Assembly (NCBI GenBank): GCA_964468315.1
Contig: CAYXTA010000002.1
Location: 64,319-128,318, forward strand
From: an uncultured Candidatus Saccharibacteria bacterium
GTDB lineage: Bacteria > Patescibacteriota > Minisyncoccia > Phycocordibacterales > UBA9973
Length of the DNA stretch: 64,000 nucleotides
Direction of reading: 5' to 3'
Shown in pieces: positions 2-53,564 of this stretch; the first letter of the stretch is position 1, and each line of letters begins with the position of its first letter. The position numbers and the translations under genes are program-made. The notes beneath the pieces were generated by a model. The model saw nothing but the letters and a program-made list of their open reading frames with translations. It was not told where the DNA came from and did not search any database.

Positions 2-1069
2 GGATATCAAAAAGTCTGCATTCCACACATTACAAAAAAAGAATTATACGAAACTTCCGGACACTGGGCAAAATATGCTGAAGATTTATTCAAAATTCAT
101 ACTCGCGAAGATCATCTTTATGCTATGAAGCCCATGAACTGTCCTCACCATACACAAATATTTGATTCTGTACCTCGTAGTTATCGTGATATGCCACAAC
201 GCTATGCAGAAACAACAATGGTTTATCGTGACGAACAATCAGGAGAATTATCAGGGCTTTCTCGTGTGCTTTCTATTACTCAAGATGATGCACATGTATT
301 TTGTCGTGAAAATCAAATCGAAACTGAAGCACTTGCTATATGGGAAATAATAGAAACTTTTTACAAAACTTTTGGTTTTGATTTACAGGTTCGTTTTTCT
401 ACTCACGATCCTATGCAAAGAGAAAAATATTTAGGTAGTGATGAGACTTGGATAAAAGCCGAAGGCGCACTCGAATCTTTAATGAAACAAAAAGGAGTAA
501 CATGGCTAGATGGCGTCGGTGAAGCTGCTTTCTACGGACCAAAAATTGACTTCATTGCAAAAGACTCTATCGGCCGTGTATTACAAGTAGCTACTATTCA
601 ACTCGATTTCAATCAACCAAAAAACTTCGGTCTTGTATGTACAAATGAAAAAGGAGAAAAAGAACAAATCGTAATGATCCACGCTGCTATCATGGGATCT
701 ATCGAGAGATTCTCTTCAACTCTAATCGAACATACAGCTGGTAATTTCCCTCTTTGGCTTTCACCTTTACAAGTCGCTATCGTACCAGTAAGAGAAAATC
801 ACCAAGAACTAGCAAAACAGATTAGAGATATATTAAAAGAAAAAGACATTCGCGTAGAATTATTTGAAGAAAATGATTCACTCGGCAAACGTATTAACCA
901 TGCTAAAGCAAACAAAATACCTTATGTAATAGTTCTCGGTGATAAAGAACAAACAGCAGGAATTCTCACTATTGAAAAAAGAGATGGCTCAAAAATAGAA
1001 GGTATATCTAAAGAAGATTTCTTAAATCAAATTTTAGAAAAAATAAACTCAAAATCTTTAGAATTATAA
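2..1069 (+). CDS. thrS: Threonyl-tRNA synthetase, C-terminal part (5' end outside window)
   Basis: Frame is open from the window edge; translation GYQKV...TSGHWAKYAEDLF...MNCPHHTQIF...FYGPKIDF matches the class II ThrRS catalytic core and anticodon-binding domain. Confidence 0.9.
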   Translation, partial: GYQKVCIPHITKKELYETSGHWAKYAEDLFKIHTREDHLYAMKPMNCPHHTQIFDSVPRSYRDMPQRYAETTMVYRDEQSGELSGLSRVLSITQDDAHVFCRENQIETEALAIWEIIETFYKTFGFDLQVRFSTHDPMQREKYLGSDETWIKAEGALESLMKQKGVTWLDGVGEAAFYGPKIDFIAKDSIGRVLQVATIQLDFNQPKNFGLVCTNEKGEKEQIVMIHAAIMGSIERFSSTLIEHTAGNFPLWLSPLQVAIVPVRENHQELAKQIRDILKEKDIRVELFEENDSLGKRINHAKANKIPYVIVLGDKEQTAGILTIEKRDGSKIEGISKEDFLNQILEKINSKSLEL

Positions 1070-8173: not shown

Positions 8174-9247
8174 TTATTTAACTTTCTCTAATTTAATCCT
8201 TTTATAATGCTTCTTATATTGATTATTGTGTTTCTGGCGAGATTTGCCTATCAATAATTGATTCAACTTTTTGGGAAATTTATCACAAATCTGACAAATA
8301 CGACTACAATAACCATCCAAATTTTTTTCACATTTCTTACAAGAAATAAAAAGAATATGACAAGAAAGATTTTTGCAATGAATATAATCATCGGATTTTT
8401 CTTTCTCACAAATCTGACAAGTAGAAACAATCTCATCTCCTATCCTTTCCCCCATTCTCTCATCAAAGACGAAATTCTTTCCTTTAAATTTATTTGGTAA
8501 TCCCAACTCTTTTACTCTGTGAGCATAATCAATGATACCTCCTTTTATATGCTTAACATTTTTAAAACCATTGTGTTTCATCCAAGCAGAAGCTTTTTCA
8601 CATCTAATACCTCCAGTACAATAAAGTAAAACATCTTCATCTTTTTTATCTTTAAACATATCTTGAACTTTTTGAAGTTGTTCTCGAAATGTATCTACGT
8701 CCATTATCTTCGCATTTTCAAAATGACCAATTACTGCTTCGTAAATATTGCGCATATCTATAACTGTCGTTCCACGATCTATCATTTCATTTACTTCTTC
8801 TGCGAGAGCGTACTGGCCAGTATTACTTGGATCAAAACTTTTATCATCGAGACCATCAGCAACTATTTTTTCTCGAACTTTTATTATGAGTTTAATGAAA
8901 CTACTACCCTTTTCTTCTACTGCAAATTTATATGGCACACCAGAAAATTCTGGTATATTTTGCAAAAATTTATCAAAAATTTCAAAGTTTGTTTCTGGCA
9001 CATTCATTTGTGCATTTATACCTTCATTCGCTATATAAATTCTACCGAGGCATTTGAGTTCTGAAAGTTTATCAAAAAGGAAATCACGCATCTCTTTTGA
9101 ATTTTCAATCTTTACATATTTATAAAAAGAAATAGTCTTGCGTTTAAAATTCTCTCGCGCCAAATCCTCTATAAGCTCCTTTTTACTTTTTTGATTAGCT
9201 TTTTCTACCATACTTTTCATATTAACGGCAAAAAGCTTTATTTGCAA
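8174..9247 (-). CDS. trhO: tRNA uridine(34) hydroxylase, rhodanese-like (YceA/TrhO family) with C-terminal Cys-rich zinc ribbon
   Basis: LLYCTGGIRCEKASAWMKHNGFKNV and GKNFVFDERMGERI are near-identical to E. coli YceA; C-terminal CxxC...CxxC clusters. Confidence 0.85.
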   Translation of the reverse strand: MQIKLFAVNMKSMVEKANQKSKKELIEDLARENFKRKTISFYKYVKIENSKEMRDFLFDKLSELKCLGRIYIANEGINAQMNVPETNFEIFDKFLQNIPEFSGVPYKFAVEEKGSSFIKLIIKVREKIVADGLDDKSFDPSNTGQYALAEEVNEMIDRGTTVIDMRNIYEAVIGHFENAKIMDVDTFREQLQKVQDMFKDKKDEDVLLYCTGGIRCEKASAWMKHNGFKNVKHIKGGIIDYAHRVKELGLPNKFKGKNFVFDERMGERIGDEIVSTCQICEKEKSDDYIHCKNLSCHILFISCKKCEKNLDGYCSRICQICDKFPKKLNQLLIGKSRQKHNNQYKKHYKRIKLEKVK

Positions 9248-9565
9248 GATTTATAGTATAATCAAAACATGAAAAGAAATATCATTATTTTGATTATTAT
9301 ATTCCTAGCAATAGGTATAACTCTCGGCTGGCTCGATAATGGACCTAGTTTGTTTTAATTGATTTTTCTCAAAAACAAGAGTAATCTAAACTTGTATCAT
9401 TATTGAGTAGTTTTGCTAAACCCAATAGACCTAATTGATTAGCACCCAAAAGGTTTGGACACATAGAAAGCAAAATGCTCCGATACTATCATGTATCAAA
9501 ATAGGGGTACAAAGCATAAAACTGCTCTTGTCACAAAGAGCAACCCTCGTTCTTTGACATATTAA

Positions 9566-9930
9566 GGTTATCAACAAAATTAAGATTAATTTAAAAATTT
9601 AAAAGCTATGAAGGACGTGATAAGCTACGATAAGCTTTGGGTATCTGCAAATAAGAGCCAATCCAAAGATTTCCGAATGGGGCAACCCAGTATTACTAAG
9701 TAATACTATTCCGAAAAGAAAGCTATAATCCGGAGAACTGAAACATCTAAGTACCCGGAAGAAGATAACAATCCTTAAGTAGTGGTGAGCGAAAAAGGAA
9801 AAGCCCAAACCAAGGTTGTAATTGTAATCTTGGGGTTGTAGGACTGTGATCATGTGCAGTATCCTGAGTACCGCAAGGATGGAGAAAACTTGTGGGAATC
9901 CACCGGCACCATCCGGTAAGGCTAACTTCT
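9566..9930 (+). rRNA. 23S rRNA 5' domain-I fragment (about 365 nt; truncated after approx. E. coli position 435; degenerate 5' helix), likely an rRNA relic or pseudogene
   Basis: Conserved 23S blocks are present in the right order: gatgaaggacgtg, gataagct...gataagcttt, tttccgaatggggcaaccc, ggagaactgaaacatctaagtaccc, agtagtggtgagcgaaa...gcccaaacc, ggggttgtaggactg, accatccggtaaggctaa. The conserved ccgatagtgaaccagtaccgtgagggaaagg block that should follow is absent. Confidence 0.7.
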
Positions 9931-9994
9931 GAATTAAATTTATTAAATTAATTTTAATCTAGGTGCAAAACATGATGAATTTCATGTGCATCTA

Positions 9995-10033
9995 ATCTCC
10001 CTGCGACTAAACGTTACAGGGAGATTTTTTTTA
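9995..10033 (+). terminator. Terminator-like hairpin immediately after the 23S fragment
   Basis: atctccctg cgactaaacgtta cagggagat followed by tttttttt. Confidence 0.5.
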
Positions 10034-10061
10034 TTTGACTTTAATCATATAAAGTGTTAAT

Positions 10062-10550
10062 TTGAAGAAAAGTACAAATAAACTAAAATATAATAAAATG
10101 GGAACTAAAAATATCATAAAGAAACATGGATTAGATTTTCTGTGGACTGTATGTATTGAAAAATCATCAGGAAAACACGAATCTCTCGATGAACACATTA
10201 GACAGTGTGAACAAGACGATGAAACTGTACAAAAAGAAAAAATAACCAAGAAATTTGTTGATAAATTAGGAGAAATATTTAAGAAGGACAAGGACGTATT
10301 TTTCTTTGTACACGATAGTCAATTTATGTTTTCTCCTGTCTTCTGTGTATTATCTGATATTGCAACACCAGAAGAACATAACTTGCTCAACCAAACAAAA
10401 CTTGCAATTGCTAAAAAGTTTAAAGAGTCTAATTTCTCAAATGAAGAAGTAAGGGATTTATTTTATAAATTACTTTATTCAAAAGAAAACAAGAAGAGGC
10501 TTGCAAATTTTGATTTAGAAATTTATGAAATAGAACACTACGATTACTAA
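10062..10550 (+). CDS. Hypothetical protein (162 aa; may start at MGTKNII, 10098)
   Basis: ORF only; no recognisable motif; directly follows the rRNA fragment. Confidence 0.35.
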   Translation: MKKSTNKLKYNKMGTKNIIKKHGLDFLWTVCIEKSSGKHESLDEHIRQCEQDDETVQKEKITKKFVDKLGEIFKKDKDVFFFVHDSQFMFSPVFCVLSDIATPEEHNLLNQTKLAIAKKFKESNFSNEEVRDLFYKLLYSKENKKRLANFDLEIYEIEHYDY

Positions 10551-10578: not shown

Positions 10579-10613
10579 AATAGCTCTATAGTATTATAGA
10601 GCTATTTTTTTAT
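10579..10613. terminator. Bidirectional terminator
   Basis: atagctctatagtattatagagctat plus T-run between convergent genes. Confidence 0.6.
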
Positions 10614-13588
10614 TTAAACTTTTTTATTAACGAACAATATTCACACTCATCTTTACTACTTCCCCAAGGTTTGTAATGGCAAATATTATCTACCCATTCT
10701 CCACTTTCTAAATCTCGAACATAGTCACCAATATCTCTTTTTAATAAATCAATTTTCTCTGCATCTATATGTGTAGAATATAAAGCATTTTTATCTCCTT
10801 CTTCTGCTTCGAGGAAAAGAAGTCTTGAAGTATCAACGCTCTTCCCTTTCTCAGCTCCAGCAACAAGATACGAATACATAGCAAGCTGACGCATATATGA
10901 AGACAAGCGACCTTCGTCATCTATTTTTTCTATTTCACTTTTTATTTTTGGTTTACCAGTTTTGAAATCAGTAATTGTAATATTTCCATTTTCTCTTTCT
11001 GTTAAGTCTAGTTTTCCATACATAAGCAAATCTGGGAATTTTGGATCAGTAAATTGAACTGATCTTTCAGATATATAATCTTTTGATAAAGAATCATAAT
11101 AATTTTTTATCCAATTCATAACAGCTTTCTCAGCGTCTTTTGTAAGTCTTTTTATTTCTTTTTCATCGATTAATCCTTCTTTTAGCAAAGATTCATTTAT
11201 CTTTTCTTTTATTTGTTTATCACTTGGTATTTCTTTATTTTTCAAAATAAATTCGATAGTGGAGTGAACAGCAGAACCAAGTGCAAGTGAAACACCTTTG
11301 ACTTCTGGAAGTTTCAAGAAATTTCTAAAATACCATTTCCATGTACATTCAAAAAAATTATTGAGCAATGAAACAGAAACTTTACTTTCTTTATAATGTT
11401 CCTTTACGAATTTTTTAATTTCTTCTATTATGTTCCCTTCTTTTTTTTCTACAATATTTGTAAAAATCTTTACTCCAATATCATCGGAAGATATTTCTTT
11501 TTCTGTTTCTTCTTTTGTTTTTTTAATAAAATGAGTATGTGGCAATTCACGGATTATTTGTGCGAGTTCTAACTCCCCTCCATTATAGTTCTCACTTGCA
11601 TATGAAATAACACAATTCTCTTTCGCACGAGTAATAGCGACATAAAGCTCTCTTTTAGCATTCTCTACATCACGCTCAGCAATATGAGCTTTTATCTTTT
11701 CTGGCAAAGTAAAACCATTTCTCTTTTCAGACATAAGTACTTCTTCATTCATATACGCAATCCAAACATTTTTATATTCCAAACCTTTTGATTTGTGAAG
11801 TGTCATAACTTGTATACCAGTATCTGCGCCAAAAGTAGCAAGGCTAATATTATTTCCATATTCTTTAAGTCTCAAAAAATACTCTATAAAATCTTTCAAA
11901 CTTGCATTTGTATGTTTTGCTTCAAACATCAAAGCTATATGAATGAAAGTCCTCACCACTTCTACATTTTTCAAAAGTTCACTATGGTTTTCAGATTTAT
12001 CTATCAAAAGCTCATTGCCTATCTTACTAATAACTACAGAGATTTTTTCATTTGCCAATTCTATCCAATTTTTTAAATTTCCTCCCCATTTTGAAATATT
12101 ATTTTCTCCTGCAAAAAGTCCATCCCCTTCGCCATGATTGATAATATCTTCTAAGGTTATTTTTTCAGGTTTAATACTTTTTAAAAATTTATGCGCTTCA
12201 AATACACCTATTCTACTTGTATTATCAAGCAGTGATTCTGATAACAAAATAGGATTATATGGATCAATTACTATATTGAGTATTCTCAAAAAACTATATG
12301 TTTCTTTTACATTAAAAAGTGACACGCTTTTCCCTGTTGAAACAGGAAGTCCTAAATCAGAAAGTATCTGCATTGCACTACGTACATGGAAATTTTTTGG
12401 TACAAGTATCGCACATTGTTCTGGTATATCTCCACTTGCAATTTTATTTTTAAAATAAAGCCCAGCACCTATTATCTCGTCTCTATGATAACTATATTCA
12501 TTAAGTAATATTTTTTCTTTTCCTTTTATATTTGAATTTAATTTTTCTTTTGTAATAGAACTACTAAGCAGATTATCAGCCAAGTCCAATATAGGTGCAG
12601 TGGATCGATAATTTTCTGTAAGAATAATTAATTTTGCTTTACCGAAAAAGTGTGCGAATTCTTCGAAATATGAAAGTTTAGCACCAGAGAAAGCGTAAAT
12701 AAGTTGCCTATCATCTCCTACGACAAAAATATTTGGTTTCTCTATGTCTTTCCAAACAGCTTTAAGAAAATTGTTTTGTACTCCGCTAGAATCTTGATGT
12801 TCATCTACTAAAACATAATTATAGTTTTCATAAATATCGGCACGTACATCTTCGTATTTTTCTACAAGATTTACTGCATATTCCAAAACATCATCATAAT
12901 CCATAAGATTTTCTTCTTTCTTTTTATCTTCATATATACGATAAAATTCGACAACTTCACGAGTGCGTTCTAATGATTCTATTTTCTTTTCGATTTCTTT
13001 TTTTAATTTACCCTTACTTTCTCCACGAGACGAAATACTATCTGGATCATTTTTTAAAAACTTTATATCACCTTCAACTTCTTTTAAGAATTCTTCTGGA
13101 TTCAATCTTTCGCGTTTAAGTATAGAAATAAGCTGTTTCAAATCGTTAAAATACATGGTAGGGTTTGTGCGAGGACGAAGATATTCCCAAGTATTATTTT
13201 GCATTATTTCATCTGCTAAAAATACAGCTTCATCTTCTTCTATTAATTTTGGCATTCTTTTGAAATCCAAAAGTTCATAATTGTTTTCTACTAAAGAAAT
13301 AGCAAAAGAGTGAAAAGTAGAAATATGAACATTATTTGCATCAATACCTATATATTCTTCAAGTCTTTTCTTCATTGCTTTTACACCAGAATTTGTAAAA
13401 GTAAGACAAAGTATACTGTCAGCTTTATTGTCAGTTTTTTTTAAAATATTTCCAATACGCAGAGCAAGTACTTGCGTCTTCCCTGTTCCAGGCCCAGCAA
13501 CAACCATAACAGGTCCATCTAATGTATCGACAGCTTCTTTTTGTGCATTATTTAATTTTTTATATTCTTGTAAAAAAATATTAATCAT
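10610..13588 (-). CDS. UvrD/PcrA-family SF1 helicase fused to a C-terminal RecB/Cas4-like PD-(D/E)XK nuclease with Cys cluster (AddAB-like single chain)
   Basis: Walker A VVAGPGTGKTQ at the N-terminus, UvrD-like motifs throughout. C-terminus has GKLDL...ITDFKTGK (D...DxK), QLAMYSYL (QxxxY) and C...CHYKPWGSSKDECEYC (four-Cys Fe-S type as in AddB/Cas4). Confidence 0.75.
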   Translation of the reverse strand: MINIFLQEYKKLNNAQKEAVDTLDGPVMVVAGPGTGKTQVLALRIGNILKKTDNKADSILCLTFTNSGVKAMKKRLEEYIGIDANNVHISTFHSFAISLVENNYELLDFKRMPKLIEEDEAVFLADEIMQNNTWEYLRPRTNPTMYFNDLKQLISILKRERLNPEEFLKEVEGDIKFLKNDPDSISSRGESKGKLKKEIEKKIESLERTREVVEFYRIYEDKKKEENLMDYDDVLEYAVNLVEKYEDVRADIYENYNYVLVDEHQDSSGVQNNFLKAVWKDIEKPNIFVVGDDRQLIYAFSGAKLSYFEEFAHFFGKAKLIILTENYRSTAPILDLADNLLSSSITKEKLNSNIKGKEKILLNEYSYHRDEIIGAGLYFKNKIASGDIPEQCAILVPKNFHVRSAMQILSDLGLPVSTGKSVSLFNVKETYSFLRILNIVIDPYNPILLSESLLDNTSRIGVFEAHKFLKSIKPEKITLEDIINHGEGDGLFAGENNISKWGGNLKNWIELANEKISVVISKIGNELLIDKSENHSELLKNVEVVRTFIHIALMFEAKHTNASLKDFIEYFLRLKEYGNNISLATFGADTGIQVMTLHKSKGLEYKNVWIAYMNEEVLMSEKRNGFTLPEKIKAHIAERDVENAKRELYVAITRAKENCVISYASENYNGGELELAQIIRELPHTHFIKKTKEETEKEISSDDIGVKIFTNIVEKKEGNIIEEIKKFVKEHYKESKVSVSLLNNFFECTWKWYFRNFLKLPEVKGVSLALGSAVHSTIEFILKNKEIPSDKQIKEKINESLLKEGLIDEKEIKRLTKDAEKAVMNWIKNYYDSLSKDYISERSVQFTDPKFPDLLMYGKLDLTERENGNITITDFKTGKPKIKSEIEKIDDEGRLSSYMRQLAMYSYLVAGAEKGKSVDTSRLLFLEAEEGDKNALYSTHIDAEKIDLLKRDIGDYVRDLESGEWVDNICHYKPWGSSKDECEYCSLIKKFK

Positions 13589-40387: not shown

Positions 40388-40690
40388 AATATTATTAAAG
40401 AAATCAAGATATGTATTTTAGGGGGTTGCTCATTCGACGGAATGAGCACTTCAGAAATTTTAAAGCTTTAAAATTTCGTACCCTAAAATATATTTCTGAT
40501 TTCTATTGTTAAAAATAAAAAAACTCGTCCCCGTACAACAATTTAAAATTGCTATACAAGGACGAGTTTCTCGTGGTACCACCTTGCTTACTTCTCATTT
40601 AATGGGTTCTACTTCCCGAAGGTTTCTTCCCAAAGCTCAGGGGTGATATCCCCTTCAACGCTTATATTTAAATATTACTACATATTTATA
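40388..40690 (-). promoter_or_regulatory. T-box riboswitch leader of ileS
   Basis: Minus strand carries the T-box sequence aaggtggtaccacgag, then terminator aaactcgtcc...ggacgagttt with a U-run. Upstream hairpin agggg-atATCac-cccct exposes AUC(A), the Ile specifier; the UGGU bulge matches discriminator A. Confidence 0.65.
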
Positions 40691-53452: not shown

Positions 53453-53490
53453 TATGTTTATTACAAACTAAAATAGAATTTATTTCACTG

Positions 53491-53564
53491 TGCGCCCTCA
53501 TGGATTCGAACCATGGACCCCAGAGGTATAAGCTCTGTGCTCTAACCAACTGAGCTAAGGGCGC
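53491..53564 (-). tRNA. tRNA-Ile (anticodon TAT)
   Basis: Reverse complement folds as gcgccct-ta-gctc-agttggtta-gagc-a-cagag-ctTATac-ctctg-gggtc-catgg-ttcgaat-ccatg-agggcgc-a. Confidence 0.8.

Follow-up and report, generated by a model that had tools for sequence, protein, structure and literature searches.

The stretch of DNA analyzed here, the window, comprises 64,000 nucleotides of contig CAYXTA010000002.1 (assembly GCA_964468315.1) from an uncultured Candidatus Saccharibacteria bacterium. Between the genes for a TrhO-type rhodanese (trhO) and an AddA-like helicase-nuclease it carries an isolated piece of 23S rRNA domain I which, together with the signals surrounding it, is referred to as the cassette. 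With modest confidence we favor the reading that the cassette is a maintained unit, predicted to be expressed as a stand-alone RNA. It is probably an accessory, independently transcribed paralogue of 23S domain I, the product of which would be a stable RNA or a ribonucleoprotein (RNP). The first-pass annotation of this DNA had proposed, among other possibilities, a relic of an rRNA gene or a domain-I-derived small RNA. Of these two, a maintained transcription unit is favored by the evidence, because the cassette has a BoxA element, a closing stem and a terminator, and is 94–99% identical between two species against a saturated neutral background, although deletion derivatives in related genomes show that it is dispensable.

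The whole window was scanned against Rfam with cmscan. Positions 9596–9936 of the forward strand, on which all parts of the cassette lie, matched the model for bacterial large subunit (LSU) rRNA (LSU_rRNA_bacteria, RF02541) with 223.2 bits (E = 2.6e-69; gathering score 50 bits). The match spanned model positions 37–483 of 2925, was untouched by any sequence end and, with 341 nt, amounted to ∼12% of the molecule; a full gene would cover six domains (∼2900 nt) and form helix 1 (H1) from its 5′ and 3′ ends. In a second species, represented by the GTDB metagenome-assembled genome (MAG) L010, the boundaries of the core were the same, and scores of 223.5 and 214.7 bits were obtained. An earlier assignment of ∼365 nt to domain I (E. 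coli positions ∼45–435) was thus essentially right according to the covariance-model scan. In a permissive Rfam scan, no second piece of LSU or small subunit (SSU) rRNA was found in the 64 kb even at E ≤ 1, in agreement with the reported absence of the 23S remainder from the next 54 kb. Called genes and fragment BLAST gave no rRNA in the ∼9 kb that adjoin the window on its left (L134/L135), where no Rfam scan was made.

The same locus was present in the Logan assembly L001 (100% over 3.9 kb), and the same junctions were found in an NCBI metagenome assembly (L002) and in a contig of the Joint Genome Institute (JGI; L133/L136). In the second species (L010 and the Logan assembly L141) the same cassette lies between the same genes and again covers model positions 37–483. 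With junctions shared by three further assemblies and a second species, an assembly chimera, which had been considered before, is refuted. In many independent assemblies of the clade (L004, L005, L134, L135, L137 and the P0002 contig), the sequence breaks off at most a few hundred bases away from the trhO/cassette spacer, which suggests either a repeat shared with the main 23S gene or a strain-level presence/absence polymorphism.

One strand of H4 opens the match and the other closes it (5′ strand 9596–9604, 3′ strand 9927–9935), so the piece is a closed sub-domain and not an arbitrary 5′ cut of a 23S gene. The 5′ end, which had been described as degenerate, is instead bounded by the 5′ strand of H4, and no recognisable 23S sequence was found before model position 37, the region of the GGTGGATGCCTTGGC helix. 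Likewise, the abrupt stop of homology that had been noticed is real (at 9936), but it marks the closure of a helix by the 3′ strand of H4 rather than a truncation. The closure is extended by non-rRNA flanks. An AU-rich 5′ strand (9579–9595) pairs with a 3′ strand (9941–9958) and adds 17 AU pairs to H4, so that the full duplex measures ∼24 bp in the thermodynamic fold; its energy of −15.8 kcal/mol was equalled in 2 of 2000 shuffles.

Downstream of the closing stem, a second hairpin of 13 pairs (hairpin 2, 9960–9994) precedes a strong intrinsic terminator (9995–10033) that consists of a 12-pair GC-rich hairpin (9995–10025) and a T8 run (10026–10033). The hairpin and T-run reported earlier for the end of the homology region were therefore confirmed, with hairpin 2 in front of them. 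The terminator, recognised from sequence and fold, is kept in L010/L141; a simple terminator scan had overlooked it, as its stem is interrupted. The sequence of hairpin 2 is not 23S-like, and no counterpart was found among ordinary 23S loci. These ordinary loci came from a metagenome scan for the main 23S gene of the lineage with the pattern CCGGCACCATCCGGTAAGGCTAA-N8-22-CCGATAG, which yielded 120 ordinary 23S loci, the best of them 78% identical; the pattern is widespread and not lineage-specific, and the 120 loci served as controls. A search for the main 23S gene in protein space, by way of a 119-aa antisense frame, retrieved only distant spurious open reading frames (ORFs) with at most 51% identity.

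Within the core, the conserved domain-I loops GAACUGAAACAUCUAAGUA, AGUAGUGGUGAGCGAAA and AAGGCUAA are preserved. H1–H3, most of the H19–H20 arm, H23–H25 and all parts beyond position 483, domains II–VI included, are absent, a 9-nt hairpin near model positions 225–233 is missing, and the hairpin at model positions 150–177 is shorter. The H19–H20 arm, between GGGGUUGUAGGA and CCUGAGUA, comprises 106–114 nt in 111 ordinary 23S loci, compared with 58 nt in L010 and 31 nt in the window, where it has shrunk to a short hairpin. Because a survey of 23S genes in the Candidate Phyla Radiation (CPR) names only H9 and H63 as generally missing (PMC9297842), the loss of the H19–H20 arm is probably specific to the cassette, the ordinary 23S controls being from other lineages.

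Upstream of the closing stem lies the BoxA antitermination element GTTCTTTGACA (9549–9559), which matches the consensus GYTCTTTAANA at 10 of 11 positions and retains the critical C4 (10.1101/091223). For comparison, 87 ordinary full-length 23S loci were used as controls, and distances were measured to the H13 loop GAACUGAAACAUCUAAGUA. A BoxA-like box was present 218–374 nt upstream of this loop in 56 of the 87 loci and was exactly GTTCTTTGACA in 50 of them; in the cassette the distance is 186 nt. When aligned with a real 23S locus (L094), the cassette keeps BoxA and a few following bases, and has lost the distal leader along with the initial 36 nt of mature 23S (H1–H3, the GGTGGATGCC region). 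The same BoxA is present in the window, in L010/L141 and in the related loci L003 and L005/L006, and is intact in every deletion derivative. Directly 5′ of BoxA, a 12-pair inverted repeat forms a putative leader hairpin (9518–9547), and a hairpin of other sequence occupies this place in L010 and L006; we infer that it takes the BoxB position of rrn leaders. The TTGACA inside BoxA was considered as a −35 element and rejected, since it lacks a −10 element in all four lineages and the 11-mer is BoxA. A consensus −10 element, TAGTATAAT (9254–9262), was found ahead of a small ORF (9269–9358; 29 aa, MKRNIIILIIIFLAIGITLGWLDNGPSLF) and is the most likely promoter for the entire unit. L141 has kept this element, and the same nonamer also precedes tRNA-Met and tRNA-Ser in the window. 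The small ORF is possibly co-transcribed with the cassette.

To assess constraint, the window was compared with L010. Between the two, TrhO and the helicase are 83% and 80% identical at the amino acid level, the corresponding genes are 79% and 76% identical at the nucleotide level, and their fourfold-degenerate sites are 44% and 48% identical and thus saturated. The cassette, including the leader from BoxA, the 3′ stem strand, hairpin 2 and the terminator, is 94–99% identical per 100 nt. The parts that are specific to it (3′ stem strand, hairpin 2, terminator and shortened arm) are ∼93–97% identical between the species, with ∼93% for hairpin 2, and the spacer beyond the cassette is unalignable. 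A neutral relic would be expected to diverge at the neutral rate and to have boundaries unrelated to structure; the values observed were 94–99% versus 44–48%, with boundaries on the strands of H4. Recent recombination that brought in the cassette was rejected as an explanation, because the adjacent gene ends show no raised identity: the flanking genes are 72–86% identical, without a rise toward the cassette. A coding role of the antisense frame (84/119 aa) was rejected as well, the frame being broken in L010; as it is not conserved, the constraint acts on the RNA.

The substitutions that did occur left the structure intact. Between the window and L010, a U-A pair is swapped for C-G at 9616/9625 and a U·G pair in H4 has become C-G. 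The hairpin at 9810–9833 has been wholly recoded with pairing retained in the window, L010 and L006, and the closing duplex keeps 21 pairs in both species, with a single U-A to U-G change. In the arm that substitutes for H19–H20, the stems co-vary between L010 (TAAAAG/CTTTTA) and L006 (TAAATTTTG/CAAAAATTTA) around a conserved loop. This replacement arm (L010 ∼9500–9540 and L006 ∼300–340, both on the reverse strand) bears the loop GCGAAAGCGAGUC(CG/UC)AAUAGGGC. In 100 ordinary 23S loci, the GCGAAAGCGAGUC..AAUAGGGC motif follows the H13 loop at a distance of ∼480 nt, and the cassette of L010 and L006 is therefore a mosaic of two distant 23S segments.

Taken together, these comparisons lean toward purifying selection on the cassette in two species and dispensability in others. 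Several points weigh against a maintained and expressed unit. The main 23S gene of the lineage was not found, so gene conversion from it could mimic purifying selection. There are only two distinct intact sequences, which makes the covariation statistics weak, with two fully compensated pairs. The promoter is inferred: the −10 element at 9254–9262 has no good −35 element, and no −10 element is recognisable after the TTGACA of BoxA. Finally, the sister subclade has either lost the cassette (L140) or carries one of two internal-deletion derivatives (L003 and L005/L006), which resembles the decay of a pseudogene.

The history of the locus was examined with a neighbor-joining tree of TrhO, which had the topology (window, (L010/L141, (L140, (L003, L004, L005, L006)))), with cassette-free lineages as the sister group. 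The simplest history is a single gain, with the cassette kept in the two earliest branches and relaxed in one subclade. Presence is patchy, as expected for a relic, with independent deletions and with L140, L142, L143 and L009 empty. L003 retains BoxA, the helices around CGAUAAGC, the H13 hairpin and a hairpin with a T-run, which may derive from the variable hairpin; in L005/L006, what is left is BoxA with the variable hairpin and the mosaic arm. The MAGs behind these loci are JAPLXQ01 (L003), JAPLXO01 (L006) and JAPLXR01 (L005), and that of L010 is JAZKCM01. When the spacers of L003 and L006 were scanned against Rfam, all matches were below threshold and attributable to chance. From these derivatives it follows that the cassette is dispensable and able to decay. 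The L140 spacer (700–830, reverse strand) contains a ∼50-nt tandem duplication, GCTTTGCATAAAGAAAATA.ATTTCGCTTTCGCTT.ATTATTTTCCTAA, that reaches into the 3′ end of the helicase gene; it may be the footprint of a rearrangement that removed the cassette or never received it. In viral contigs, two cassette-specific patterns were unmatched; a BoxA-gap pattern gave 19 matches, about the number estimated for chance, and none of them was 23S-similar.

The alternative that survives best, which we regard as possible but not probable, is that the cassette is a decaying relic, a functionless partial duplicate of a 23S unit that has stayed alike through gene conversion or is younger than its flanks imply. 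The patchy presence, the nested and different deletions in L003 and L005/L006 and the absence from L140, all within one subclade, are what such a relic would leave behind; the pattern of conserved and variable segments mirrors that of real 23S, and since BoxA and the next bases are those of an ordinary 23S leader, conversion tracts could exist. The boundaries fit less well, as both ends are strands of one helix to which the flanks add 17 pairs, unlike a random break. Conversion also does not readily account for the parts that are missing from ordinary 23S, which are likewise ∼93–97% identical against 44–48% at fourfold-degenerate sites, and it should tend to restore the 9-nt hairpin and the H19–H20 arm, the deletions of which persist in both species. 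No recombination tract is visible in the flanking genes, and BoxA has remained intact even in the deletion derivatives.

It is very unlikely that the 23S rRNA of this lineage is made in pieces, with a main gene that lacks ∼37–483 and a cassette that supplies the domain-I core in trans. We give the extreme version, in which the cassette would be the only copy of its part of 23S and a bacterial 23S would come from two unlinked genes, a similarly small chance. In favor of this reading, the piece is structurally closed, is as conserved as rRNA, and has a BoxA leader and a duplex like a processing stem, and no other 23S was found in the 64 kb, nor, by gene content and fragment BLAST only, in the ∼9 kb to the left. 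A ribosomal piece supplied in trans would be expected to be intact in all members of the lineage with all helices kept, whereas the closest relatives have either no cassette or internally deleted forms (L140, L003 and L006). Two separate losses of domain I from the main gene would also be required, because the two intact carriers do not form a sister pair. The H19–H20 arm, which we take to be the main binding site of uL24 and uL4, is reduced to 31 or 58 nt instead of 106–114 nt, and the CPR survey mentioned above names only H9 and H63 as generally missing.

That the cassette is the 5′ exon of a 23S gene with a very large CPR-type insertion, as the first-pass annotation had also considered, or a misassembly, is effectively excluded, even though CPR rRNA genes often contain insertions that code for proteins (PMC11270868) and contigs of relatives (L004, L005, L134, L135 and L137) end near this spot: both junctions are alike in four independent assemblies and a second species, the match starts at model position 37 and not at 1, the piece is closed by H4 and has its own terminator, the ORF that follows it has no endonuclease signature or fold, and trhO and the helicase gene are syntenic neighbors in cassette-free genomes (spacer of 46 nt in L142 and ∼230 nt in L009, and with only the small-peptide gene in L140). 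In a split CPR rRNA gene the 5′ and 3′ parts flank the insertion on the same strand, and the insertion would be expected to encode a homing endonuclease of the LAGLIDADG, HNH or a similar type. Here no 3′ part is present within 54 kb; the published pipeline for such insertions joins rRNA hits that are at most 5 kb apart (PMC11270868).

For the favored reading, a maintained stand-alone RNA, the following origin and mode of action can be proposed. In the genome ancestral to one Nomurabacteria-like subclade, the 23S leader (BoxA and the next bases) and the 5′ ∼480 nt of 23S would have been copied into the spacer that separates the small-peptide gene and trhO from the helicase gene; this copy would then have shed the distal leader, H1–H3 and everything 3′ of H4. 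Transcription would start from the −10 element ahead of the small ORF, and BoxA would bind NusB/S10 to allow a full-length untranslated RNA to be made in an rRNA-like manner. NusB and RNase III are encoded in the genome (Pfam hits on L134/L135). The core would fold as domain I, while the terminal duplex would shield the ends or be trimmed by RNase III like the processing stem of a pre-rRNA, leaving a stable RNA of ∼340–380 nt. Because it lacks H1–H3, H19–H20 and H23–H25, this RNA is unfit for a normal 50S subunit; it could still show domain-I surfaces, as a mimic of 23S domain I or as an RNP. The simplest conjecture is that it acts as a decoy or buffer by exposing these surfaces to factors that associate with nascent 23S, e.g., early-assembly L-proteins or Nus factors. 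More specifically, and only tentatively, the product may be a stable BoxA-dependent “mini pre-rRNA” that serves as an extraribosomal decoy for early L-proteins, NusB/S10, RNase III, or an rRNA-targeting enzyme or toxin; if true, rRNA would have given rise to a regulatory RNA of a new class.

The cassette was compared with known systems. With the bacterial 23S gene (RF02541) it shares homology at 37–483, the conserved loops and the BoxA 11-mer of many real leaders, but it differs in having no operon, a non-rRNA AU closing helix, its own terminator and only partial length. LSU rRNAs are fragmented in several systems, such as the eukaryotic 5.8S, the 5.8S-like 23S piece of alpha-proteobacteria, the 7S and 3S of the Chlamydomonas chloroplast and the scrambled pieces of mitochondria. 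As in these, the cassette would give a separate domain-I RNA flanked by a processing-type duplex. Fragmented LSU rRNA pieces are, however, indispensable and lineage-wide, and the bacterial ones are cut from a contiguous precursor, whereas the cassette is an unlinked unit of incomplete structure that close relatives can do without. Orphan or truncated rRNA pseudogenes resemble it in being partial, off-operon and patchy, with deletion derivatives in relatives; helix-defined ends, an added closing stem, BoxA, a terminator and 94–99% interspecies identity set the cassette apart. The rRNA mimics in ribosomal protein leaders (L1, L10, L20 and S10) also present an rRNA-like protein-binding surface, a likeness that concerns only the possible mode of action. 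Those mimics are short convergent elements of 5′ untranslated regions (UTRs), whereas the cassette is a 340-nt true homologue; nor does it lie in the 5′ UTR of a ribosomal protein gene, as its terminator is followed by an ORF of 150 aa (ORF150) in the window and by the convergent helicase gene in L010, where nothing on the same strand lies downstream. Finally, CPR rRNA genes with insertions (PMC11270868) share the organism group and the presence of an ORF after an rRNA segment. The cassette lacks a 3′ exon and is terminated before the ORF, which is devoid of homing-endonuclease features and absent in the other species.

A literature search for orphan 23S fragments and rRNA mimics gave no account of such a unit in CPR bacteria. 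Off-operon partial rRNA genes are usually written off as assembly errors or junk. In this streamlined CPR genome, a 480-nt non-coding unit with BoxA, a closed domain-I fold and a terminator is retained, and it persists between species with saturated silent sites. If expressed, it would be a natural case of an isolated rRNA domain as an independent RNA and would bear on the autonomous folding of domains and their recruitment of proteins, on the fragmentation of rRNA genes and on the regulation of ribosome assembly in CPR bacteria, which have few biogenesis factors. On the practical side, such cassettes break assemblies, may be mis-scored as “23S present” in quality checks of MAGs and can confuse rRNA-based binning.

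The cassette is followed by ORF150 (10098–10550, forward strand), a lineage-specific insertion that separates the terminator from the helicase gene. It had been annotated as 162 aa. The open frame at 10062–10550 is real; the likely start is the ATG at 10098, which gives 150 aa, the length also called by gene callers on other assemblies. ORF150 is absent from L010/L141, in which the terminator adjoins the helicase gene. No sequence match was found in Pfam, PHROG, PADLOC or the PDB. Its AlphaFold2 (AF2) model is confident (pLDDT 87) with an alpha/beta architecture, and no significant fold match was found in the PDB. The family has 15 representatives among 1.8 billion sequences, all of ∼145–150 aa, with invariant residues I34, C83, Y127, N131, L135 and L140; the gene for one homologue is flanked by greA and metK, away from any rRNA. 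The ORF had been put forward for a check for homing-endonuclease folds. As no endonuclease signature or known fold was found and the gene is absent in L010/L141, roles as a homing endonuclease or as a part of the cassette were rejected, and ORF150 is an unrelated orphan gene outside the cassette.

The host genome is small and AT-rich (33% GC), and its nearest genomes are MAGs labelled Candidatus Nomurabacteria or Patescibacteria. The surroundings of the cassette are ordinary chromosomal genes. Its direct neighbors, trhO (8174–9247) and the AddA-like helicase-nuclease gene (10610–13588), both lie on the reverse strand, and gyrB, pheS, pheT, a TerC-family gene and truB are further neighbors in the window. 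The gene content of L134/L135 to the left of the window includes thrS, rpmF, nusB, rnc, smc and a diversity-generating retroelement (DGR). The latter was observed at positions 1–2050 of L134, ∼8 kb upstream of the first base of the window, where an RVT_1 reverse transcriptase (325 aa) and a bAvd protein (98 aa) form a DGR-like pair. A fused NusB-NUDIX protein of 299 aa is also encoded on L134.

The 29-aa peptide MKRNIIILIIIFLAIGITLGWLDNGPSLF encoded upstream of the cassette is hydrophobic and conserved, and its gene is divergent from trhO. Homologues that end in GW(L/I/M)DNGP were found in L004, L008, L140 and L141, cassette-free genomes included. The last 36 nt of the small ORF and the next 9 nt are identical between the window and L141 despite the saturation of silent sites. 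In the LacPavin MAGs, a conserved non-coding element of ∼150–190 nt, GTACTTTGAAGATGTATTACTTTCAATGTGAACTGCG...CAAAGTCCGGCTGTA...CTACAATATTGAAACAATAC, is located between the small-peptide gene and BoxA (L003 ∼9690–9870, L005 ∼60–240 and L006 ∼480–660, all on the reverse strand); it had no Rfam match and no likeness to ordinary 23S loci.

The stable RNAs detected elsewhere in the window were four tRNAs and a transfer-messenger RNA (tmRNA). One of the tRNAs is a tRNA-Ile with the anticodon UAU (53490–53564, reverse strand), which is unusual among bacteria, as these normally decode AUA by means of a modified CAU anticodon. At 40555–40667 (reverse strand), a T-box leader match was obtained below threshold (45 bits versus a gathering score of 93, E = 1e-6); this may be a reduced form of the T-box riboswitch in this CPR genome.

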